Source: Neophaeotheca triangularis (Eukaryota). From it: a stretch of 64,000 bases of DNA. The notes under the pieces are model-generated. The model was not told the DNA's origin. It saw only the letters and a program-made list of their open reading frames with translations, and searched no databases. A program made the translations under genes and the position numbers. Position 1 is the stretch's first letter. Every line of letters begins with the position of its first letter. Location of the stretch: contig BAAIJX010000014.1 in assembly GCA_054600435.1 (NCBI GenBank), positions 1 to 64,000 on the forward strand, read 5' to 3'. Positions 31,879 through 61,848 of this stretch are shown here, one piece after another.

Positions 31879-32688
31879 TCACACGCCCCCAAAAGCCTTC
31901 GCAGCCCTCATCCTAACCCCCTCCCAACTATTCACCTTGGGCCTAACATCCAAATGAAAACTCAGCCCTCCCATCCCTTTCCCTTGATAAAAATCAATCA
32001 CATACTCCACCCTCTCCCCACAACGATCAACAACCCAATCATGCCGATCAAACGGCCTCTGATACCCCTTAACCCACATATTCCAAACCGCCCTGGGTGT
32101 CAACTTCTTGCTATCGCCGCTGAAAGACACCAACTTGGGACCTCCACACTTGTCCGCCAAACGCCCCTCCCAGTCGAGAATCTGCGACCACGCTCTCTCG
32201 TTGACGGCGTTGTGGATGGGCACGATGCTGCCCATGTCGCTGGTCTGCGGGGCGTGGCCCTTGCGCTCCATGGCTTTGAAGAACATTTCTTGCGACGGGT
32301 AGATCCAGTTGCCGCTGGCGGCGTCGTGGCCTGTGTCGCCTTGGGAGTTGGCTGGGGGGAGGGCGGCGCGCTCGGCGTGGTTTAGAGAGGTTGGATCGGC
32401 GTTGGGGAAGGCGCGGGGGATGGTGGAGATTTCGCGGTCGGTGGAGAGGCGGCGGAGTTTGGGGGGGCGGGATTCGGGATTCTGTTGGGAAAGTGGAGGA
32501 GGAGATGGGGCCTGCCATCGTCCTGTGTCGAGGGAGTAACGGAGGCTCGAGGGTGTTTTAGGTCGAGGGGCGTTTTGAGGCGTGGCGGCTTTCTGCTGGT
32601 CTTTTGCTCTAGCTGCCTCGAGCCATTTCTCCCGAGTCTGGTGATCGACTGGGCATTTTGCTTCTGGATCGTCACTCTCACTTCTCAT
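31879..32688 (-). CDS. CYT2: Holocytochrome c-type synthase, most like cytochrome c1 heme lyase
   Basis: Heme-regulatory 'CPVDH', 'NWIYPS..MFF.AM.RKG', 'IHNAVNERAW' and 'PFDRHDWVVDRCG..YVIDFY'. CYT2 versus CYC3 was judged from the N-terminus only. Confidence 0.8.
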   Translation of the reverse strand: MRSESDDPEAKCPVDHQTREKWLEAARAKDQQKAATPQNAPRPKTPSSLRYSLDTGRWQAPSPPPLSQQNPESRPPKLRRLSTDREISTIPRAFPNADPTSLNHAERAALPPANSQGDTGHDAASGNWIYPSQEMFFKAMERKGHAPQTSDMGSIVPIHNAVNERAWSQILDWEGRLADKCGGPKLVSFSGDSKKLTPRAVWNMWVKGYQRPFDRHDWVVDRCGERVEYVIDFYQGKGMGGLSFHLDVRPKVNSWEGVRMRAAKAFGGV

Positions 32689-33040: not shown

Positions 33041-35296
33041 TCAGACTTCAACTTCTCGCCCATCCATCCGTTCGAGAGCCCGTTGCTCATCCGCAGTCGG
33101 CTGATTGCTAGGTGGAGGTACTACTGCAGTGGCATTCGTTGCCGTGACACCGGTCATGCCCCATGCCTATACGGGAATGTCAGCAAGATACAATCGGACT
33201 AGCCAACGACGTCTATCTCTGCTCACCTGAGATCCCAAATTCTTCACGACAAGACTAAACACAGCCATGCTCATAAACGGAGAGATCAAGCGGTTGATGC
33301 AAAATCCGCCCACAAGCTTGTACCATTGACTCCGCAGATGCTTGTTCAGAAACAGCATCGCGAACAGGAACCAAGTGGTTGGGGTGAAAACTACCACCAA
33401 AGCCGGAAGGAGCTTGACGATGCTGAACTCGTCGGTCGCGAGGCCATACAAGAAAAGAGCCGTGTTGAAAACGCGGTAGAACACCATTGTAGCTCGGATG
33501 ATTTCTATTGCTGCCGCGATGCGAGTGATGACAATCATGTGCGCGCCGCCAAGGTACCAGTAGTTGTTGAAGTAGGCATTGCTTCCCCATCTGCGGCGTT
33601 GGCTCAGGTAATGCTTGACGCTCTGGGGTGCGACTGTTTCTGAGCCGGCTTCTGGTATGAAGAGAGTACGGAGATGACTCCCCTGTGACAGCATTGAGTA
33701 TGTCAATCGACGGTCTGTTCCGAGATACTGCACTTGATGGCGCATCACGCCAAACGAAGTCACCGGCTTGGCATACTTTGAGATCGCCCCGGCCATCTCT
33801 GGCCTCACGGACGTCATTGTGATGCAGCCTGGCAAGCAAGTAACTTTTCCAATGTAGTGTTCGGCTCCTCGGCGCACAATCTGACCAAAGGAGTACTGAA
33901 ATTGCTGGTACAAATTCCACATGGACCATTCTTTCCCGGGCTCGAATTCCACATAGACAAATCCGCAAGCCCCAATGCAGTTGGGGTCTGCCAGGCAGGC
34001 ATCGGCGAGCTTTGCGAGGGCGCCGCGGTGTATTGTCGAGTCAGCATCGGTACAGAACATGAGGTCGAAACCCTCGAACCCTTGTGTTCGGGTCAAGTGA
34101 GGTATGATGTTGGACCAGATCTCTTCGCGCAGCCGCAGAGTATCGAGGTCGATTTCGGAGCGCGGGTAGTTGAAGAGGTCATAACACAGGACAAGTGAAT
34201 CCTTTTTCCCGGCGTTGAGGACTTTTTCGATGCAGATGACTGGCATGTCTTCAATAAACCCGGCATTGATCCTGAGGGTCCCGACTTTGTATTTGAGGTT
34301 CAAGTAATCCCTCTCGAAAGAAGCCACAATTTTGGTCATGCGGTCTTGGATCGGTCTTGACTTTCCATCAAGGATGACGCAAAAGACTTGTTTGTGGTCT
34401 CCCGTGTCGTTGTCCCGCAATGAGTACATGGACTTGACGATTTGTTCCTCTGATTCAGAGTAAGCTGGAATCAGCGAGAGGATCCAGGAAGACTTCTTGG
34501 CCGGCGCCTTGACGAAGAGAGACTTGCCCCCGTAGTAAAGCCGGAAGTAGATCTGGATCAAAACGGAAAGGAAATCTTTGCTCTTAAAGAACAAGATTAG
34601 GATAAGAACCCAAAGACCCGATTCGTGAACTCCAACGAGGACCATCGGAAGTACGTTGAGGGCCAATATGATGCTCCCGAATAGTACGCGCTGCAAAAGC
34701 AACTCCGGCTTTGTCAGCTTTCGGACCGGTGTAGGAGGCGCCTCTTTCCTCGCCAGACCAAGTTCGATGTCAATGTCTGCGTTCGCGGTCGGGGGATTTT
34801 GAGACGCGTCGTTGGCGACATGTATGCTGTTCCTCCCGTCCGTAGGGTCATCAGGCACGATCGAAGACTGGTATGAGCCTGCAGAAGCTTGAGACCTCCC
34901 GGACCGTCGCAACCGAGCATCGCCTTGATTTGTGTCCCTTTGCTCTGTTTGAGTTGTAACAGCGGCGGGAAACGAGGATGGACGTGGTTGATGGACGTTT
35001 CGTATACGCCCACTCAAGCGCTGTTGACTGGCTGTAGAATCCGCGGCGACTACGTTTGTGGTATCAGATTCATCGTCTTCTGCATGCTTCTCGCTTGGAA
35101 TACCGTCGCTCTCTAAGTCGTTGCGCTGGTCCTCGTCATTTCGTCCCCGGTCGCTTTCCTTCTCTCCAAGCTCCAACGAGCCTTGCTCATCGGCAGCCAT
35201 AAATGCACTCGATAGTAGTTTTCGTGGGTGGATAGCGGGCTGTGATTGTGTGTTGGTGGAATCGCTCAGGGATGGTCGCGAAAGAGGTCTCGTCAT
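33041..35296 (-). CDS. Atypical chitin-synthase-like GT2 processive glycosyltransferase; intron 33167-33226
   Basis: 'IPAYSES', 'ILDG', 'NAGKKDS', 'CTDADS', 'QQFQY', 'VTCLPGC', 'GTDRRLT', 'QRRRW' and spliced 'SQ/AWG'; TM helices on both sides of the catalytic core. Start ATG is 35296 or 35200. Confidence 0.88.
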
Positions 35297-38045
35297 ATCC
35301 CGATTTTTCAAAGCTGCGCCCGCAACCCCTTGAACTATTGAGCCGTTAAGTAAAGGTCCGGACCTTCCTGCCGTATCAACCCTTGCACGAAGTCGAAACA
35401 GAGACACCGAGAAATCCCACAGACAAAAGCGACTGGAGGAAGCAGTTGAATAGCCAAGTAAGACTCGAGTCCAACGAGAAGAAGACTTGGAAATGGGCAA
35501 GGGAAACTCTCACAGCAGCGAAGACAGTGACGAGAACAAGAGTAAGTACATGCACACAATCGACTGACCGAGCCCAAGAAGGACGAGCCCAAGACCTTGA
35601 TCCTTCTTGTTGGACATACCTCTCATGCCATAGAATTTCTCGTCAAAAGCGGACGTAGATTATCGAAATCTTCGAAGTTCAATCTTCCGACATGATGGCT
35701 CACCAGTACTGTTGAGTGTGCCACCACCTACGTAAAAAATAGCACGTAGAAAAGCAGATTCGTCGCCAATAGCGTGGAAAATTGCCTCTGAAGTAAATGT
35801 TCGGAAGTTTGTACTAGCAGAATCGAAGCCCAAGATTGGTTTTGGACCCAATATGGCGGTACTCTCCTCGGGAATTTTTCGTTTTTACGACAATTGGCAG
35901 TCGGCTACACTGACCAGAAAACCCCGAGGTACCGGAGGGCATGGTGGATCTTCAAGACCTCCCACGGCTAACATACCGGGAAGTATGTTGCCGGACGGCA
36001 TGGCAGGCCGTCGAGGAGTGCAAAGTGTGGCTGCCATGCTGTTGGTTCCATGGACCGTGTTTGTGGATAGATGGGCATTTCCGAAAACGCATGTCGAGAG
36101 GGACGGTAAATGGCAATTGGGAGTGACCGAGTGACAGGTCACAGCCAGCCCTGACAGGTACCGGCTTCCTCCATCTTCGGAGAATTGTCGTACTCGGACA
36201 CGGCGGACATGCTCGGACGGGTCGCCATCCATTGGCGCTTCCACGCTATCTCACGTGACTCTTCGAAGAAATGTTAGCAGATGTGTGTTGATTCCTCCTT
36301 CTTCTACATGCGAACAACAATAATAATTGCTTACCGGCATCGGTTTGAACGATGCTCCCTTGCCGACATGATCCTTCTGCCCTGCCCATTGTAATATTAT
36401 ATATTATTGAGGTGTAGTAGACTAGTAGTACCTTAGTAACCTCACTGACTGCTGTGTGCATACTATCCCAGTGTGGTGGTCGAAGTGTGAGCGGTACCAC
36501 TTCGTGAGGGGCACTCAGGCAAGGAGACCGCTTGGTGGCGTGAGACATGGTAACACCAATGTGCCTATGTTCGGGTCGAGGAGCCACCATTGGATTGCGT
36601 AGTGGCGCTGAAGGAAGAAAGAAAAAAAGAAGCTTGGTAGCGAGGTGGCAGTGGCACCCACGTGGTCCACACGGGGGTGCACTACCGTTACCCAATGCGA
36701 AGCCAAAATACGACGGCCGGACTGTCAACGGTCGGCGCCGATAACCTAACATCGACCTAATCCTCACTTCATCCTATGGACTCGGGTCTGCACTAGGCGT
36801 GCTGGTGCATCGATGGTACGTACAGACTACAGTACGTGCTCAACGCACAACGACCTCCTGTAACTTTCGAGCCTTTCTAATTGCCGACTTCTCCTTCACG
36901 GTGAAGCTTTTCATAGCCTTCCAAGGCTATGAAAAGAGGTTACGACGAAGCCAAAGTCACACCACGTCACCTATATACCACGTTCGTAACCTTTTCGATA
37001 GATACTTCCGGTAGGATGACAGCCTACAATGCCAGCTGGCTATGCAGCCAGTCTTCACCGAGGCTTCCGCTCTAATTATTACTAGCCACGTACTAAGATG
37101 TTCGATGTACTATCATTTCTGAGATGTTCTTTTGAACATGTAGGACGTCGATACTGACTAGCTGCTCAGGAACCACGTTGGATCCGCGGTTGACCTAGAC
37201 ATGTATCCGCAACACTGGAAGGAGCAAATAGCCGAGCTTTATCCCATCGACCGAATAGCAGGAACAACGTTAATGTGGGCCCGTTCGAACAACGCTATGC
37301 CTTATGGAAGATTAGCCGGGCAAGTTCCTCGATAGGGCCGTCTCCCCGGCTGTATCAAACCACCTTGTATGTAGTGTGTCGCTTGATCTGTACGAGATGG
37401 AGTGCGCGTTTTGCGTGTGAGGTCCTTGGGGACACCTTGAGCCGCTCACATCGCAGCACGGCTCCCAATACTCCTCCGCTGTAGCCGCCTCCAAACTTCC
37501 TTCCATCTTGGAACACTCCCTGTCGCAGACCCAATAATCTGGTCGGTGCCCTGATCGGTATGCTCGCCCTACGACTGCATGTCAGATGTCTAGCGGTCGC
37601 CGATTTTACTGCTGAGAGTTCCACACTGACCAACAACTACTGGGATCCAATCCACAGTCTTCCATCCCGCTACTGCGCGCTGTCACTAGTAATTATGTGC
37701 TTATACTTACTCCTTTACGGTTCAGAATTGTTGAGTCTTACCAAGTAGGTGGTTCTGTATACCGTAGACTTTCTACGACGCTCCGGTCACATCTCTTGAT
37801 TGCGGAGAAGAAGAGGATGGACCAAAAGGGCACACGCTACCGCTGTAGAGGATGGTCCTCGCGCAAAGCCTAGTCAGGAGATCATACTACTGAGTTCTCG
37901 GGACACATGTGGCCAGACCTGGATGCTTGCGGCTTGTCGAAGGAGTATGGTACCGTCTGGTCAGTGTCAGCCTTGTCCCGTTTGGTCTGTCAGTATGGCG
38001 GCCGCTCGTACGGGATTGAGTCGATCCGGAGGAAGGCATCGCAGC

Positions 38046-38052
38046 ATATAAG
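38046..38052 (+). promoter_or_regulatory. TATA-like element upstream of the dehydrogenase gene
   Basis: ATATAAG about 125 nt before ATG 38175, followed by a CA/CT-rich 5' leader. Confidence 0.5.
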
Positions 38053-38174
38053 ACCTTGACCACGACCGCATAGGTCTACATCAGCATCAACTCATTCATC
38101 CTCCTTACTACCATCCACAACAGCATCGCTCATTCGCTTCGCAAAGTCTCTCGTTTCTTATCACCAACACAACA

Positions 38175-39636
38175 ATGCCTCACTTCATCGACCCAGTTGC
38201 CCTTGAGGGTGCTCAAATGTAAGCAATCTTACAGTATCTCAAGTACTCATGAGTTGAGCTCCGACTGATCCTTGCACAGTCTCTCCGAGCTGAAAGCCGA
38301 GACCGCCGTGACGACCACAGAACTCCCAGAGATCACCATCACCCCTTCGGATGACGAGTCTATTGACCCATTCGACAAGGTTGCCTCGGCCAAAAAATCC
38401 GTCGAAATCTTGAAGACCGACTACTCCGTCCAACAGCCCACCGAGACGATAGCAAACCTCGACAAAGCCATCCATGAAATCGCCTCGGAATGGAGTCCTC
38501 ACGTCTGCGTCGTAGGTGTCGGATATGTCGGCGAGATTCTACTCAGCGAGTTCGGCTCCGTCTACCCAGCGACTGGTTTCGACATTTCCGAGAAGCGACT
38601 TGCGCAGATTGCCCCAGACTTTGCCTCATTGAGCAATGTAAAACTCACCTCTTCCATCTCGGCGCTGAAGCGCGCCACACACTTTTGCATCTCGGTGCCC
38701 ACTCTCCTCCGAGAGGACAGGTCGGTCAACCTTGACCACTTGAAGCGGGCCATTGACATGGTCACCACCCACGCCAACCCGGGGTCGACCATCGTCATCG
38801 AGTCCAGCGTTTCCGTGGGCACCACGAGGGCTCTCCTAGGCCCCTACTCGGACAGGTTCCACTGCGGCATGTCTCCCGAGCGTGTCGACCCAGGCCGTAC
38901 CGTTCCCGCTGCCCACGATATCCCCAAAGTCATCTCAGCCTTGACCGAGCCCGCGCTTCAAAGCATGATCAAACTTTACTCCAAAGCTTTCCGCACCGTC
39001 GTCCCCGTCTCGAAGCCAGAGGCTGCCGAAATGATGAAGCTCTTCGAAAACTGCTACCGAATGATCAACATTGCCTATGTCAACGAAATCGCCGACGCCT
39101 GCAAGAAGCAAGCCATCGACGTGGCCGAAGTCATTGCCGCAGCTAGCACAAAGCCCTTTGGCTTTTCGCCATTCCACCCCGGTCTTGGAGTCGGCGGACA
39201 CTGCATCCCCGTCAACCCATTCTACATCATGGCCAACAACAGCTTGCCCCTGCTTCAGCTCGCTACCGAGAACAGCTGGGAACGCCCCCACGCCATCGCT
39301 CGCGAATTCTTCAAGGAAGCCGAGTGCAAGCTCGGCCGGGCACCAAGAGTGCTCGTCGTCGGCATGGGCTTCAAGCCAGGACAAGACGTTATCGACTGCT
39401 CCCCAGCCGTTGCTTTCGCCGAGGAGCTCAACACTCTGTCCTGCGGCGCACTCGCATTCCACGATCCTCTCGTCAAGCAAGAGCAGCTGCCCTGGATCCG
39501 ACGCATCGAAGCATCGGAATTCACTGAAGACGGTATTGACGAGAAGTTCGACTGCGTGGCCGTTTGTGTCAAGCAGCACCACGTCGACTTCGATGTGCTT
39601 GACAGAGTGCAGAAGGCTACTCTGACTTGGTTTTAG
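38175..39636 (+). CDS. UDP-N-acetylhexosamine 6-dehydrogenase (WbpA/TviB/WecC-like nucleotide-sugar dehydrogenase); intron 38219-38279
   Basis: Rossmann 'VVGVGYVG', 'ISVPT', 'IESSV', 'SPERVDPG', 'KLFENCYR.INIA..NE', catalytic 'GVGGHCIPVNP' and 'GMGFKP'. Confidence 0.9.
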
Positions 39637-40222: not shown

Positions 40223-41380
40223 ATGGCCTCAGAAGGAGAAATCCACCGCTCCAGCACCTACGCCCCCGTGAACATCGCCGTGATTAAATACTGGGGCAAG
40301 CGCGACCCGAAACTAAACCTGCCCACCAACTCCTCCCTCTCCGTAACCCTCTCCCAAGACGACCTCCGCACCCACACCACCGCCTCCTGCAGCCCAACCT
40401 ACACCACCGACACCCTAACCCTCAACGACGCCCCGCAAGACCTCAACACGCCCCGCACCCAAGCCTGCCTCCGCGCCCTCCGCGCCCACCGCTCCGCGCT
40501 CGAAACCGCCAACCCCTCTCTCCCCAAACTCTCCTCGCAACCTCTACGCCTCATCTCCGCCAACAACTTCCCCACAGCCGCGGGCCTCGCCTCCTCCGCC
40601 GCCGGCTTCGCCGCCCTCGTCCGCAGCATCGCAGACCTCTACGCGCTCCCGCTAACCGCAGCCTCACTGTCCCTAATCGCGCGCCAAGGCTCCGGCTCCG
40701 CCTGCCGCTCGCTCTTCGGCGGCTACGTGGGCTGGAAAGCAGGCGAAGCCATCGACGGCAGCGACAGCGCCGCGTACCAAGTCGCGCCGGCGTCGCACTG
40801 GCCGGAAATGCGGGCCCTGATCCTCGTGGCCTCGGACAAGAAAAAGGACATTTCGTCGACGACGGGGATGCAAGCGACGGTCGCGACGTCGGCGCTCTTC
40901 CAGACGCGCGCCCAACACGTCGTTCCCCAACGCATGCAAGCCATGACGGACGCGGTCCGGGAGCGTGACTTTGCCGCTTTCGCTACGCTTAGCATGCGCG
41001 ATTCTAACAATTTCCACGCAACCTGTCTCGATACTGAGCCCCCTATCTTTTACATGAATGATACGTCTCGTGCGGCGGTGAGGATGTGCGAGGCTATCAA
41101 TGCGGCTGAGGGGAGGGTGGTGTGTGGGTATACGTTTGACGCGGGGCCGAATGCCGTGGTTTACTATCTGGAAAAGGATGAGAGTGCTGTTGCGGGGGTG
41201 TTCAAGGGAGTGCTGGGCGAGAAGGGAGGGTGGATGGGGAGTAGAGGCGGGAAAGTCGGGGTTAAGAGTGTGCCGGAGGGTATGGAGAGTGTGGGGGAGA
41301 TGTTGGAGAGGGGGGTTAGTGGGGTTATTTTGACTAGGGTCGGTGATGGGCCAAGGAGGGTCGAGGAGCATCTTTGTTGA
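40223..41380 (+). CDS. MVD1: Diphosphomevalonate decarboxylase (ERG19)
   Basis: 'APVNIAVIKYWGKRD', 'NNFPTAAGLASSAAG', 'ARQGSGSACRSLFGG' and 'YTFDAGPNAV'. Confidence 0.97.
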   Translation: MASEGEIHRSSTYAPVNIAVIKYWGKRDPKLNLPTNSSLSVTLSQDDLRTHTTASCSPTYTTDTLTLNDAPQDLNTPRTQACLRALRAHRSALETANPSLPKLSSQPLRLISANNFPTAAGLASSAAGFAALVRSIADLYALPLTAASLSLIARQGSGSACRSLFGGYVGWKAGEAIDGSDSAAYQVAPASHWPEMRALILVASDKKKDISSTTGMQATVATSALFQTRAQHVVPQRMQAMTDAVRERDFAAFATLSMRDSNNFHATCLDTEPPIFYMNDTSRAAVRMCEAINAAEGRVVCGYTFDAGPNAVVYYLEKDESAVAGVFKGVLGEKGGWMGSRGGKVGVKSVPEGMESVGEMLERGVSGVILTRVGDGPRRVEEHLC

Positions 41381-42159: not shown

Positions 42160-43671
42160 TCAGCCCTCCTGCCTCACCTCCCTCGTATCCGTCCGCCCAA
42201 TCCCATGATACTGATCATGCCGACTAGGCACGCCGACCAGCGCCTCACCATCGCGTGTACTCATCTTGGCAATCCGCTCTCCCAAACTCTCGACGTTTAC
42301 ATCATCATCATCATCACCATCTCCTTCAGCGACACGCGGGCCGGGCGCCACGTCCAAGATATCCCCTACGCTCTTAGAACGCACGCGGTCGAGACTTGCT
42401 CCGGCACCCGAGCCGGCGGTTGCGGTGGCTGCACCGTTGTTGCTGTTGTCTTTCTTGCCCCCAGCGAGGGAGTCGAGGGTTGGGGTCGTCGAGGAGCTGC
42501 CATAGTCTCTAGCCACGGTGGGGCCGGAGTCGGATTTGCTGCGCACAGGATCTTCGGCGGGGGAGAGGGAGGAGCTGCGGGGGTTGGTCTGCTGGCGCGC
42601 AGGTTTGGGACGGCCGAAGGATTTGAGGCGCGAGAAGAAAGAAGGGCGGGTTTGTTTCGTTGTTGTGGAGGGGGTGGTGGGTGGTGTGGTTTTCTTGTTG
42701 TTAGTCTTGCCGTTTGGACTGTTTTCCCCGCGGTGGATGAGGGTTGTCTCCGGTTTGGGCGTTTTGTGTTCGTCGGACGGCGGCGTGATTTCGGCGAATA
42801 GCGGGTTGAAGAAGATGCTGTTTTCCTTGCGCTCGCGCTCAATTTGATTGAGCGCTTCCTGCGTCGCTGTCACGTACTCTGGGTATTCGTCTTGGCAGGC
42901 TTGCTGAATGAGGCGGAGTTTGCTAATGTCGTTTGTGGTGCGCGTGCGATCGTTGGAAATGTGCCAGCCCAGGGCGCGCACGTCCATGCGCACGCCGCGG
43001 TCGACGCGGTCTTTGACGTCGAAGAGGTTGATCAGGGTGTCGACGCGCTCTTGGGTTTGCACGATGAATATTGCGAAGCGCGCCGTGTCGTTGATTGTCC
43101 AATTTTGCATGGTTATGGAGTTGCTCCGGCGCGTGTTGAGGTGCGCGTAGGATTCGGCGACCTCTTGGAGGAGCTCGTATTTCTCGCGGAAGGCTTCGAG
43201 GCGGTTTGTATCCAGGGCGGGTTGAAAGCCCGAGGCGGGCTTCTTGGGTGGTTTGAGGCCATAGACTTCCATCATCTCTTCGCGTGTCATGTGCACCGAG
43301 CGGTCGACTATGCCGTTGAGAGCTTCCTCCACTTTGACTCGGGTCTCCGTCTCGTCTAGTCTTGCATCTCTTTCGCCGAAGAAGGTCGGTTCTTTCAGGT
43401 CTGGGTATGCCAGACTAGGGTGTTTGGGCACAGCTCTATTGGTAACGCTCTTGGGTGGTGAATGGATCCCAACAATGTCGCCCCAAATCAGCAGACGTGC
43501 CTGTTGTATACCCAATCGAGCCAGCAAGACTTGTTCCTCCTTGTCCCATTTCTGCGCCGGGTGTACTAGTCCAAAGGCTTCGACACAGTTGCTGAAGAGA
43601 CCAGCCAGAGCTACAACGCCGGTGAGTGCGCTCTCATGCTCGAGATGCTGGGCGCTTTCGTCTTTCGACAT
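42160..43671 (-). CDS. HeLo (prion-inhibition/propagation) domain protein with a disordered C-terminus
   Basis: N-terminal 'GVVALAGLFSNCVEAFGLV...RLGIQQARLLIWGDIVG' and 'W.IND..RF...V......VD.L' match the HeLo pattern. Confidence 0.75.
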   Translation of the reverse strand: MSKDESAQHLEHESALTGVVALAGLFSNCVEAFGLVHPAQKWDKEEQVLLARLGIQQARLLIWGDIVGIHSPPKSVTNRAVPKHPSLAYPDLKEPTFFGERDARLDETETRVKVEEALNGIVDRSVHMTREEMMEVYGLKPPKKPASGFQPALDTNRLEAFREKYELLQEVAESYAHLNTRRSNSITMQNWTINDTARFAIFIVQTQERVDTLINLFDVKDRVDRGVRMDVRALGWHISNDRTRTTNDISKLRLIQQACQDEYPEYVTATQEALNQIERERKENSIFFNPLFAEITPPSDEHKTPKPETTLIHRGENSPNGKTNNKKTTPPTTPSTTTKQTRPSFFSRLKSFGRPKPARQQTNPRSSSLSPAEDPVRSKSDSGPTVARDYGSSSTTPTLDSLAGGKKDNSNNGAATATAGSGAGASLDRVRSKSVGDILDVAPGPRVAEGDGDDDDDVNVESLGERIAKMSTRDGEALVGVPSRHDQYHGIGRTDTREVRQEG

Positions 43672-45415
43672 TGTATCGTCAAGCTCCAGATGGCGTCGCC
43701 CGGTGGCCCTTCTTTCCCTCGAATAGCTATGGATGCGGAGGTATAGCGAAATATAAGGTGATAGTAGCAAAGCAGAAGTGTGTCGTACCTAGGTGAGTAG
43801 ACCTACAAAAGCTGTACTCGAGTCTCGGTAGCTGAAAGAGAAGCAAACCTTGAGACCTAGTTGACAACGATGATGATGTCGCCGAGCAAATGACCGCCCC
43901 CTCTTCATGTAACAGTCAGGCTACGAGGTAAAGGTACAAATATGGGAACACGGAGAGTGGATGATTACCTGGTATTCGCATGCAGTCATGATTTTCTCCC
44001 CTTTTTCATGTGAAAAGACAGGACATGACCTCCTCATCTTCCCCCATCTCGACAGCATTCAAGCTTCCCGTCCCTTCTTTTCGGCCATATCTGGTCAAAG
44101 TGAGGGGCAAAAGCTCTGCCCGGCGTGTGACGCCAGCTCGTCGTCTTGGCTACATGTTCTTGTTGCATGGCATGCAGGTGGGTATAGTATCAAATACATC
44201 CATGGATACCTAGGTAGTCACGTAGTATTGAGGAAATTGCAGGCGAAGAGAAAGGGACATTACCTAGGTATTGCAGGTGGGAACCGACGCGACTATCGAG
44301 ACGGAAGGACGAGCCGACAGAAAAAGGGGTCTGGTTGGTAGGAGCCAAGGGTTTCGGAAAGGGACGACGACGACCAAGTCTCCAGAAGTCTCAACTCTTG
44401 TCTACCCATGGACTTCCCTCTACTTGGGTGATCAAAGAAGTACGTGGCATTGACCGGAAGCAGTGACATTGTAATCCAAAGATGAAGCGAGTCTATCGAG
44501 TCACCAAAGTGCTGGCCATTATAGAAAGACTACGTTTCTTGCCCGCCCCCTTCCCCCACTCTCGACCACATTCTATCCTCGACTTTTCAACTTCGCTGCT
44601 CGCACAACAATGGACGATAATCGCGCGAGGACGCCATGGCAGAGAAGTGGGGCAATGGTAAGTGATGGCACTCCGGCGTCCACTGTTCAGGAACGACATC
44701 AATCTATCAAGACCGCGGACAACGACATGTTCTGTAGCTCTCGATATCCAGGTACATGTGCAATTGCAAGCTTCCACACAACTTCTACCAGCTTTCCCGA
44801 ATCCACAACATGCCATCTCGAGTTTCGCCCCCCGGCTTTAAGCCTCTCGAAGAGACGACTACTCTGTTCAAGTAGCAGCAAATCGGACACCTTGACGTGG
44901 TGCGTGCTGAGCTTAATGCTACCGCACCCACACAGCACCCACTACCACGCCTGGTAAATCTATCATCTCTCCGAGAATCGATGCAACTTCCAAATTGTCT
45001 AGTAGCATCTCAAATGTGAGAAAATTCAGGCAAAAATGGGGGCCAAACGTGTCACTCGGCTCGCCGCGTTGAATCGACAGCGAGCTTGACGAAGTCGACC
45101 GGGGATCTTGAACTTTGACGCCCAAAAGCGAGTGCTGACGTCGACAATTTGAATTATCGCACCAACAACAGAGGTCAACGATCGTACCTGCAAATCAAGC
45201 GTACGCAAGCATCTGCTACCCGTATCGATGCGAAAATCTAGACTCTTGCGAGTGATCAACTATAAGTACATCGAGGTTTCATTTTGCGCGCCGTTTTCTG
45301 TCAGCCTCTCCAACACCGAGTACTATCATTGCTTTAATACTTGAAACAAGATACTTACTACAGCACGTCAAACTCCCATTTCACACCCTAGGACCACTAC
45401 ATACAGTCGATCACC

Positions 45416-59245: not shown

Positions 59246-61848
59246 TCACAACTCCTCGTCGTCGTCGTCTGGCGCCGCTGCGGCAAGCACAGCAGCAACA
59301 CGAACGGCATCCTCCGCAATCTTGACCATGCGCTCGCGCATCTTGCTAGCGGCGATGTGGAGGATAGCGGAAGTGGTCTCTGGCGTGTTTGCGCGTAGGG
59401 TACCAACAAAGTCGAAGGGAGCGGCGTGTTTCTTGTCGTGACAGCCCCAGCTGTCGCCTGTAAAGGACTCCAAGTCAAGGTGGAAGGAGCCTGCAAGGGC
59501 AACATCGTCGGTAGACGATCGTTTGGCCTGCTTGTACAAGGGGGTTTTGCCTTTGTCTGAGACGGCAGTCGTGGAGGCCTGTTGAGAGGCCGCCGGTGGG
59601 GATGTGAAGTCGGTGGGAGTCATGCCTGAAGCGCCACCGAACACTGGAATGGTTGAGCTGGCGAGAGCCTCCACGTCTGGGTCGACCTTGACTTCAATCT
59701 CTTTCTTGACAGTAATTGAACCGCCCGCACGCTTGGTATGGAGACCACGAGCTGCCTTGCGAGCAACTTCGGTGGCAAAACTACCCGTCAGACGGTTAGC
59801 ATCGTCAGAGGTGGACTTGTGCGCCGCCTTGCCAGCAGCAACGGACGAAGAAGCGTTTTCTTCAGCGACTCTGGTAGCGTCGCGAGAAAATGGGTCGTTC
59901 TTGATCTCCAAAGTGACATCAGATGTCTCTGGAGCATGGGGAGTCGGGGTCGGGGCTGCAGATGATGACACGCTCGCGCCAAAAACGTTGGCCGTAGACA
60001 TTGGAGCAGCTGGTGAAAGAACGTACGGTTCTTTCTCGTCGGGCGGGACAACCATCTTCACACGGCCTCCCTTCTTCTTTTGGACCGTGGTAGGTGCAGA
60101 CTGCGGCTGAGTCTGAGCCCTGGGTGCGACAGCACCTGGAGCAGCGGGTTGGACCTTCGCTAGTACTAGCGCAGCTGGAGCACGTCCGACTGAAGCAGGC
60201 GTGACTGGAGTAGGTGTAGCTTCACTGCCATCGTTGAGCGACATGTTCTGCACAGAAGAAGGAAGCTGGGCCGCTACGTCCACGACAGTAGCTGGCTTGG
60301 CTAGGGTAGAAGACTGAACAGAAGTTGGAGCAAGCTGGCTGCGGGATTCCGTCTTCGCCTCGGCATTCCCTCCAGTCTCTGCCTTTTCCTTTGCGAATGC
60401 TGCTCTGGCAGGTCCTAGGAAGTCATTGATCTCTGGGTGGTCTTCGTAGTACCGCGTAACCTCATCCTCTGGACGTGTGCGAACCATCTCTCGAGCCTTG
60501 ATCGCGGCCTCCAACAGCCACACCTTGTCGTTGCCGGTGTAGCATTGGTCGGCGGCCTCGCTGGTAGGGTCCGCAGCGTGCAAAGTGGCCTCTCGAACCA
60601 ACTTGCGGCGAACGGCGAGGTAGACTGGCCTGCGCTCTGGATGCGCGCGGTAGAAGTCTTCGCCATAGGTCGAGGACTGTTGAATGAACGCGCTCGCCTG
60701 AAGAGCATGCCTACGCTCGACAATGTCGTCCCTGAAATCTTTGTTGCCGGGCGGCTGAGAAGCGATGAGATGAGCTACAGCCTGAGCTCTCGCGTTAGCA
60801 GAGCGATGAAGTGGAGAATCGCGACCAAAGGTAGCATCACGAACCGGGGGTGGAATAGCAGGGGCATTGCGAGGAGCAGCAGCAGCAGCAGCACGAGCTC
60901 GAGGTGGAGTAGCCGGAGTGCCGTCGCGCTGAGGACGCTCTGCGCCAGCCATGATGGTAGCAAGCGGAACATCGCGACCCCTGGCGTTGTTGTGCTGGGG
61001 ACGTGTAGAGTTGGTGGCGCGGATGATCGGTGTGTCGTTGACAGGAGCGGTTGCTGTTGGAACACGAGCCCTAGAACCTAATGGGATTGCATTAGCTCCG
61101 GTCGCACCAGACTGAACACGCTGTCCGTTTCTTCCAGTAGAGCCTAGGGGTATGGCATTAGCCCCGGTCGCACCTGACTGAATACGCTTTCCATCTCTTC
61201 CAAATCGCACCGTGCCGCTAGCACGAGGCGAAGGAGCGCGATTGGGGTTTGCTTGGCGAGGACCGGGAGGAGGTAGGCGCCCTGAACCAAACGATGGACC
61301 CGCGCGAGGAATTGAGTCGCGAATATTACCGCGACCGCCGGATGTGGTGTAGTTGCCTGGAGCAGGTGGCCCACTGCGACCACGATTCTCCGTAAGCCAC
61401 TGAGCACGCTCCTCACCAACACGCAACTCGATGCTCTCTTGTCCTTGATCGTAGCGGTTTCGGAGGCCGGCCGCGTTGGCACGACGATGCCCCTGTCCGT
61501 CGAAGTAGTTGGTCCTCGAAGCGTGAATGGTTTCGACTTCGAAGTTGTCTGGGTCTGCAGGGGTCACGGGTGTTAAAACGGTATCCTCTTCCATTCGCGG
61601 TGAAAGCATAAGCATGAGGAGCGGTCTTCATGCTTGCACTTGAGGGTAGAATTGTACTTACTGTTCCACTGTGACAACTTCTCATCACCTCTCGCCCCCG
61701 CGCGATGCGCTTCAGCAGCGCGGAGCAGGTTCGCTTGCTGGTGTGCATTGATGTTGGCGAGTCTGTCGGGCATGGCGGAGATGGTTTCGCGAGTCTCTTC
61801 GCCGAGATCGCGCAGCATCGCTGCCATCTCTGCCTCGTCGGAAGACAT
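59246..61848 (-). CDS. Large low-complexity hypothetical protein (Arg/Gly-, Ala/Pro-rich); intron 61555-61661
   Basis: A 789-codon ORF is joined in frame to the upstream exon MSSDEAEMAAMLRDLG by a GTAAGT..TTAAC..CAG intron. No domain recognised. Confidence 0.7.

Follow-up and report, generated by a model that had tools for sequence, protein, structure and literature searches.

A two-gene UNGD-CHSL cluster in Neophaeotheca triangularis: an ESV-class synthase beside a sugar nucleotide dehydrogenase, and the polymer they may make

Virus-like chitin synthase genes lie beside genes for sugar nucleotide dehydrogenases in several fungi. A two-gene cluster of this kind, UNGD with a chitin-synthase-like gene, CHSL, is described by Chen 2014 (PMC4059230) in Wangiella (Exophiala) dermatitidis, in other Ascomycota, in Ustilaginomycotina and in algal viruses. 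In that account the two products are proposed to act in concert, the orientation of the genes is variable and transfer between fungi and viruses is inferred; the hypothesis put forward is that UNGD supplies UDP-GlcNAcA (UDP-N-acetylglucosaminuronic acid) to the synthase. The ESV and CV classes of virus-like chitin synthases were named by Goncalves 2016 (PMC5122149), who state that the ESV class lacks functional evidence. A chs8-cda1-UNGD cluster is described in Trichoderma (Kappel 2020, PMC7053769), and a 2025 review (PMC12653383) presents both classes as still unclassified, with clustered precursor genes. Here a pair of this kind is analysed in a 64,000-bp stretch of Neophaeotheca triangularis (contig BAAIJX010000014.1, positions 1 to 64,000), referred to as the window. 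A family 2 glycosyltransferase (GT2) and a dehydrogenase are encoded there head-to-head, and the pair is very probably a new instance of the published fungal and giant-virus cluster, with a GT2 of the ESV class and in the two-gene form that has no deacetylase. An earlier note on this DNA had mentioned virus-like chitin synthase clades beside such dehydrogenases, which is correct and in print; its idea that the two genes make an acidic polymer had already been published in Chen 2014.

The same note placed the two genes head-to-head over about 2.9 kb, and this is confirmed to the base: the distance from ATG to ATG is 2878 bp (35297-38174). The parts of the pair are as follows.

33041..33166, minus strand: GT2 exon 2, ending in the stop codon TGA; it begins with AWG (the SWG/CON2 motif), with WG at 33158-33163.
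33167..33226, minus strand: GT2 intron of 60 nt, GTGAGC...TATAG, read from the sequence; the splice agrees with the NCBI length of 699 amino acids (aa).
33227..35296, minus strand: GT2 exon 1, ESV-class chitin-synthase-like, supported by the open frame, Pfam, NCBI identity and AlphaFold2.
35297..38174, no strand: intergenic region between the start codons, 2878 bp, covered by Pfam, Rfam and repeat scans.
38175..38218, plus strand: dehydrogenase (UNGD) exon 1, from frame reading; the NCBI model also has 466 aa.
38219..38279, plus strand: UNGD intron of 61 nt, GTAAGC...CACAG, read from the sequence.
38280..39636, plus strand: UNGD exon 2, stop codon included, encoding an N-terminal extension and then the Rossmann, central and UDP-binding domains.

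At NCBI, N. triangularis entries with the consecutive locus tags g1477 and g1478 match the two proteins at 100% identity. The GT2 has 731 aa from the first ATG; the 699-aa NCBI model fits the second ATG, at 35200, with the same splice. The dehydrogenase has 466 aa, equal to the length of its identical NCBI counterpart. A third gene within the spacer was rejected after scans of its 2878 bp: none of 13 open reading frames (ORFs) gave a convincing Pfam match (one stood at E 0.091, below the cut-off), no Rfam family reached its gathering score and no direct repeat was found.

In the E. dermatitidis cluster (HMPREF1120_01790/01791, PMC4059230) the same two families are adjacent. Its proteins share 55-56% identity with the window GT2 over the catalytic region and 56% with the window dehydrogenase, and a deacetylase is absent from both clusters. 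The window differs in its host, which belongs to another class (Dothideomycetes), in its flanking genes, in its head-to-head arrangement over 2.9 kb and in the non-conserved N-terminal extension of ~75 residues on its dehydrogenase. The extension precedes the Rossmann fold (window 38281-38510, plus strand) and is not conserved in most relatives, the matches to which span 80-92% of the query.

The class of the GT2 was assessed in a tree of 89 rows (quick IQ-TREE, LG+G4), comprising the window sequence, 56 of 150 listed representatives hand-picked for covering about 400 or more of 501 residues, and 32 of 52 distinct virus-like ORFs, merged at 85% identity. The root is a single long outgroup, a class V/VII synthase known by its myosin, cyt-b5 and DEK_C domains. 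The window GT2 lies inside a fungal clade of 12 rows (SH-aLRT 100) with proteins of Fusarium, Aureobasidium and E. dermatitidis, and this clade together with Ustilaginomycete sequences forms one of 15 rows (SH-aLRT 96). The sister clade, of 46 rows (SH-aLRT 99), has a CV-like part, whose sequences have polysaccharide deacetylases as neighbours, and a chlorovirus-like part, whose neighbours are a polysaccharide lyase of family PL14 and a multicopper oxidase. The GT2 is assigned to the ESV class because it groups with the Ustilaginomycetes, which carry only ESV-class members according to Goncalves 2016 (PMC5122149), because CHSL of W. dermatitidis falls in a clade with a brown-algal virus at its base in Chen 2014 (PMC4059230), and because ESV-1-84, from Ectocarpus siliculosus virus 1, comes first among the matches in a viral structure library (E 1.2e-32, TM 0.82). 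This protein, EsV-1 ORF 84 (Q8QNI9), is the namesake of the class and aligns with the window GT2 over 493 residues at 23% identity. No phaeovirus-like contig lies inside the fungal clade of the 89-row tree. A divergent GT2 outside the canonical chitin synthase classes, as the earlier note had it, is borne out by the tree and by the motifs described below. The phylogenetic comparison that the note proposed stands for the class V/VII root, from which the GT2 is set apart and with the ESV class; named synthases of classes I-IV and VI are not among the rows.

Recurrence of the pair was followed at GT2-anchored loci, found by contig scans with a GT2 alignment, A1 (single-protein scans of metagenome and viral contigs gave none). 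Loci with at least 45% identity to the window GT2 were called fungal-like, duplicate contigs being left in the counts, and a locus was taken as informative where a UNGD was seen or where at least 5 kb was present on both sides of the GT2. Among 28 fungal-like loci, 12 of them informative, 9 have a UNGD near the GT2; among 75 virus-like loci, 47 of them informative, the number is 37. Seen from the side of the dehydrogenase, a GT2 match occurs within 3 kb of 13 of the 29 viral loci whose enzyme has Asn four residues after the catalytic Cys, and of none of the 41 with Asp; among 80 prokaryote dehydrogenase loci there were two with a weak GT2 match (48 bits) and no clear relative. Locus tags could be compared in eight species besides N. 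triangularis, the two genes being consecutive in five, within 3-7 tags of each other in two and far apart in one. The linkage, whose conservation the earlier note had left as a question, thus recurs in both fungi and giant viruses. The head-to-head layout does not: the nine fungal-like pairs comprise five convergent, three tandem and one divergent, and a shared promoter is therefore not what selection keeps. Co-regulation through a divergent arrangement, as supposed in the note, is accordingly not a conserved feature of the two-gene loci. A UNGD of Exophiala spinifera (PV08_06692) is listed without a chitin-synthase-like gene in Table 6 of PMC5742258, and may be a dehydrogenase with no partner.

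Some viral loci are more richly furnished. On chlorovirus-like contigs (L001, L004-L006, L008, L019, L087 and others) genes for a polysaccharide lyase of family PL14 and for a multicopper oxidase lie about 1 kb downstream of the GT2. Polysaccharide lyases act on uronic acid polymers. The PL14 synteny is common to related viruses, so it amounts to roughly one observation. On giant-virus-like contigs GT2 and UNGD are accompanied by GFAT in L014, L022, L039 and L065, and by one or two polysaccharide deacetylases in L014, L045, L064 and L065; these loci resemble more complete cassettes for an amino-sugar polymer. As further partners of the pair, a deacetylase, a PL14 lyase, GFAT and a multicopper oxidase were each rejected, since neither the window nor the fungal-like loci contain one. 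For the deacetylase the 64-kb window was searched by tblastn with three deacetylases from CV-like loci, and PF01522 is absent from its 25 long ORFs.

Described chlorovirus genes (CVK2-type chitin synthase; the PBCV-1 hyaluronan synthase A098R with a UDP-glucose dehydrogenase and GFAT) likewise bring one membrane synthase and precursor enzymes into one neighbourhood, much as GT2 is joined by UNGD, and in some cases GFAT, in the giant-virus loci of this analysis. The products of the chlorovirus genes are reported in reviews as chitin or hyaluronan. Chlorovirus-like loci add the PL14 lyase and multicopper oxidase, both of which the window lacks.

Both genes are alive, that is, intact and under purifying selection. 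Compared with the contigs of a second strain, the spacer shows about 3% difference and small indels; for the coding pieces the figure is 0.7-1.8%, and neither coding sequence has an indel. The differences number 240, of which 40 are listed; 31 of these 40 lie in the GT2 coding sequence, 22 being synonymous and 9 not. This pattern speaks against a silent relic of viral gene transfer with no present function, a reading for which the published point traces to an integrated EsV-1 copy in Ectocarpus (PMC5122149). Such a relic is very improbable: both genes have spliceosomal introns and all the catalytic motifs, and orthologues exist at 50-80% identity in several fungal classes. Furthermore, in E. 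dermatitidis the two genes have transcripts, which fall together at low pH (Chen 2014, PMC4059230), and UNGD is reported to be down-regulated on skin (PMC5075926), so the pair is regulated there. For the window itself, run X3, taken for RNA only by guess, yielded no more than three short contigs (189-253 nt, depth 2.8-4); they lie on dehydrogenase exon 2 alone and say nothing firm on expression.

What the pair makes can be proposed along the lines of the published mechanism: it would produce a UDP-N-acetylhexosamine (UDP-HexNAc) uronic acid and build it into an exported polymer, a tentative reading whose chance we put not far short of even. The dehydrogenase would oxidise C6 of a UDP-HexNAc to the uronic acid by means of NAD+ and a Cys nucleophile; UDP-N-acetylglucosamine (UDP-GlcNAc) is the most likely substrate because it is abundant in fungi. 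The compact GT2, whose predicted build (two N-terminal helices, GT-A domain and C-terminal bundle) is that of the chlorovirus hyaluronan synthase, would polymerise the uronic sugar, alone or with UDP-GlcNAc, into a beta-linked chain. It may extrude this polymer through its own membrane channel, giving rise to a charged chitin-like component of wall or matrix.

All three UDPG_MGDP_dh Pfam domains are detected in the dehydrogenase, and the motifs SPERxDPG and GGHCIP, picked out by the earlier note, are present as SPERVDPG and GGHCIP. Two further elements bear on its chemistry.

38515..38532, plus strand: GVGYVG, the GxGxxG NAD-binding motif (invariant G79, G81 and G84 in the dehydrogenase alignment, A2; coordinate by arithmetic).
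39202..39216, plus strand: CIPVN, with the catalytic Cys and, at Cys+4, Asn in the position that is Asp in characterised members of the family.

Besides these glycines, C308, K253, N257 and E200, the Glu of PER, are invariant in alignment A2. The best solved relatives are the UDP-N-acetylmannosaminuronic acid (UDP-ManNAcA) dehydrogenase 4r16 (6.8e-33) and Cap5O (3e-26), UDP-glucose dehydrogenases reaching 1.9e-13 or weaker. NCBIfam similarly ranks WecC, for UDP-N-acetylmannosamine (UDP-ManNAc), and then TviB above the UDP-glucose dehydrogenase models. All the equivalog cut-offs are missed, however: TviB scores 101.9 against 592, WecC 121.5 against 459 and the archaeal UDP-ManNAc dehydrogenase 125.6 against 750, the one model passed being the subfamily TIGR03026 (245.2 against 189.8). 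Of the WbpA/TviB/WecC branch proposed in the earlier note, then, the greater nearness to UDP-ManNAc/GlcNAc than to UDP-glucose dehydrogenases stands and the membership does not; as judged from sequence, the assignment holds as resemblance. Bacterial and archaeal UDP-HexNAc 6-dehydrogenases (WecC/Cap5O; TviB/WbpA) share GxGxxG, ES(S/T), PER, KLxEN and GGHC with the window enzyme. They differ from it in having Asp at Cys+4, and identity is at most 30-37%, the range of the nearest prokaryote relatives; giant-virus relatives reach 39-44%.

The Asn at Cys+4 marks a clade. It is found in 119 of 120 fungal matches (the remaining one has no motif found), in all 40 UNGD matches at GT2-anchored loci and in 29 of the 30 viral matches at 36% identity or more. 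Asp is present instead in 40 of the 43 viral matches below 36%, in all of the 80 nearest prokaryote loci and in each of the five best solved relatives whose alignment was displayed by residue. The homologous Asp280 of human UGDH is described as one of six conserved active-site residues and holds an active-site water (PMC3129169). Such near-invariance, set against a conserved Asp elsewhere, could mean that the chemistry has changed in the Asn-type enzymes, with release of a 6-aldehyde or a thioester passed on differently, and that the GT2 polymerises neither GlcNAc nor GlcNAcA. This is improbable. Asn can still hydrogen-bond water, and the Cys, Lys, Asn and PER Glu are all invariant, the last being the residue favoured as the base in thioester hydrolysis by Egger 2011 (PMC3129169).

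In the GT2 Pfam detects Chitin_synth_2 (PF03142) at 3.7e-28, with part of the profile covered. Every motif that the earlier note had listed (D, DxD, TDR, QRRRW and a terminal WG) can be located in the sequence; besides the WG of exon 2, the motifs are these.

34367..34369, minus strand: Asp of ILDGKS, the DGx substrate-binding motif (invariant D121 in alignment A1; coordinate by arithmetic from the verified frame).
34040..34048, minus strand: DAD in FCTDADS, the DxD metal/UDP-binding motif (invariant D228 and D230 in alignment A1; coordinate by arithmetic).
33893..33907, minus strand: QQFQY, where chitin synthases have QxxEY (Glu to Gln).
33710..33721, minus strand: GTDR, in place of the (G/S)EDR of chitin synthases; it retains the catalytic Asp but has Thr for the donor-sugar-binding Glu.
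33587..33601, minus strand: the QRRRW motif.

Measured against the chitin synthase (EC 2.4.1.16) signature given in PMC12653383, the window GT2 fails QxxEY and EDRxL, having TDRRL for the latter, and agrees in QRRRW. That review assigns the EDR Glu to binding of the donor sugar and places QNFEY at the channel entrance, where it pairs with QRRRW. Both changes extend across a 76-row clade of the tree. In a motif table displaying 83 of the 89 rows, TDR occurs in 70 of 70 rows of this clade and EDR in 13 of 13 rows outside it. The Glu of QxxEY is replaced by Gln in 68 of the 70, the exceptions being P0310 (Ser) and P0345 (Glu), and both signature Glu residues are present in all 13 outside rows. 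CV-class clusters (Fusarium graminearum FgCHS8; Trichoderma atroviride chs8-cda1-UNGD) likewise have a compact Chitin_synth_2 GT2 with TDR and QxFQY, and an Asn-type UNGD. They belong to the sister clade at about 30-38% identity, however, and possess a polysaccharide deacetylase, which the window does not; T. atroviride CHS8 is reported with QRKRW (PMC7053769) in place of the QRRRW of the window.

Within this family some proteins carry additional domains. In P0347, P0364 and P0382 (1077-1224 aa) a Chitin_synth_2 domain of the TDR/QxFQY type is followed, as a C-terminal fusion, by a formin FH2 domain. Two annotated ESV-type proteins, P0027 (Neocucurbitaria cava) and P0095 (Coniocarpon cinnabarinum), have a weak GH18 (chitinase family) domain N-terminal of the synthase domain, and the second also has MAPEG. 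These could be true fusions or merged gene models. GH18 as a neighbour would be a hint of a chitin-like product.

The AlphaFold2 model of the GT2, built on a 28-row alignment, has a pLDDT of 89.8 and a pTM of 0.89. A pair of N-terminal helices, presumably transmembrane, is followed in it by the GT-A domain and then by five long C-terminal helices forming a bundle; residues 1-~190 stand before both N-terminal helices. By sequence the GT2 is about equally remote from the solved structures of S. cerevisiae Chs1, Phytophthora Chs1 and Chlorella virus hyaluronan synthase (Cv-HAS), with E values of 5e-7 to 4e-6; its family profile matches the same structures at 3e-15 to 5e-12. The top VIA-align match of the model is Cv-HAS (Z 26.2, 389 residues, rmsd 3.9, model residues 32-500), the folds being nearly superposable at a sequence identity of about 15%. 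The modelled fold says that the GT2 is a processive membrane-embedded beta-glycan synthase; it does not tell which polymer is made.

This near full-length alignment with Cv-HAS could be taken to indicate a hyaluronan-like system, in which the dehydrogenase would be a UDP-glucose dehydrogenase and the GT2 would alternate glucuronic acid with GlcNAc. A chitin/hyaluronan synthase is also the subject of a speculation in Kappel 2020 (PMC7053769) on a CV relative. S. cerevisiae Chs1 is tied with Cv-HAS in fold score, however (Z 25.0), as are the Foldseek E-values, and the sequence E-values are alike. Since the dehydrogenase is, moreover, far closer by score to the UDP-ManNAc/GlcNAc enzymes than to the UDP-glucose enzymes, a hyaluronan-like product is decidedly improbable.

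A more serious alternative is that the GT2 is an extra chitin synthase making plain beta-1,4-GlcNAc chains, the dehydrogenase having been co-transferred or serving to tune the UDP-GlcNAc pool or a separate glycoconjugate. This is possible, though doubtful, and much of what supports it weighs at the same time against the uronic acid polymer proposed above. Neither our literature search nor the 2025 review yielded a chemically defined product for any member of the cluster. Chlorovirus chitin synthases are reported to make chitin fibres (reviews citing Kawasaki 2002; PMC5122149 among the sources), and deletion of the CV-class FgCHS8 lowered both chitin and chitin synthase activity according to Goncalves 2016 (PMC5122149). 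The polysaccharide deacetylases of CV-type clusters suggest an N-acetylated chitin-like polymer, and the Pfam assignment to Chitin_synth_2 and the GH18 domain annotated on ESV-type GT2s of two species agree with plain chitin as well. Some GT2 loci lack a nearby UNGD: 3 of the 12 informative fungal-like loci (L028, L037 and L038) and 10 of the 47 virus-like ones. When viral contigs were scanned with the dehydrogenase alignment, five of the virus loci that have no UNGD beside the GT2 proved to have one farther off on that contig or within the same metagenome-assembled genome. The TDR/QxFQY signature is shared by virus loci in which 5 kb or more contain no UNGD, so it does not follow adjacency; as proof of an acidic donor it is rejected for this reason. 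Hyaluronan synthases, moreover, accept a uronic acid donor and yet have an acidic residue (GDDR) at the EDR position. On the side of the dehydrogenase, the missed equivalog cut-offs count in the same direction, and Asn in place of the active-site Asp makes even four-electron oxidation to the acid an assumption.

Plain chitin has its own difficulties. The linkage survives many rearrangements of orientation, across fungi and giant viruses, and two of the three chitin synthase signature motifs are changed at Glu throughout the clade. Furthermore, the assays behind chlorovirus 'chitin' may not exclude a partial uronic acid content. Returning to the reading in which the two enzymes act on one product, the signatures of the two clades, both read from sequence, fit a changed substrate or a changed chemistry; neither proves it. 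A bolder extension is that the Thr/Gln-type synthases and the Asn-type dehydrogenases are a co-evolved fungal and giant-virus pair making a polymer other than chitin, be it poly-HexNAc-uronic acid, an alternating GlcNAc/GlcNAcA chain or, should Asn in place of Asp alter the oxidation, one containing a C6-modified sugar. This is conceivable, if rather unlikely.

The window adds one species to a cluster known since 2014, and the remaining question is biochemical rather than genomic. The clade-wide substitutions, loss of two Glu residues in the synthase and Asp to Asn near the catalytic Cys of the dehydrogenase, offer concrete targets for mutagenesis. If an acidic chitin-like polymer is indeed made, it would be a new component of the fungal wall or matrix, present in extremotolerant species and in many pathogens of plants and humans. 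This would matter for immune recognition, for desiccation and salt tolerance and for antifungal targets, and a trait of fungi would be linked to the exchange of genes with giant viruses. Should the pair be co-evolved in the sense above, fungi such as N. triangularis, a halotolerant black fungus, would have an undescribed charged polysaccharide in wall or matrix, and some chlorovirus 'chitin' would need a second look.

Two genes flank the pair and lie outside the module.

31879..32688, minus strand: cytochrome c/c1 heme lyase gene (PF01265, 6.8e-36).
40223..41380, plus strand: diphosphomevalonate decarboxylase gene (PF18376, PF22700).

They correspond to the CYT2 and MVD1 of the earlier note, with the proviso that Pfam does not separate CYT2 from CYC3. 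Elsewhere in the window, a 793-aa open frame at 59246-61627 (minus strand) matches no Pfam family at E 1e-5. Just past the diphosphomevalonate decarboxylase gene, at 42160-43788 on the minus strand, lies a gene for a protein with a HeLo (prion-inhibition and propagation) domain.

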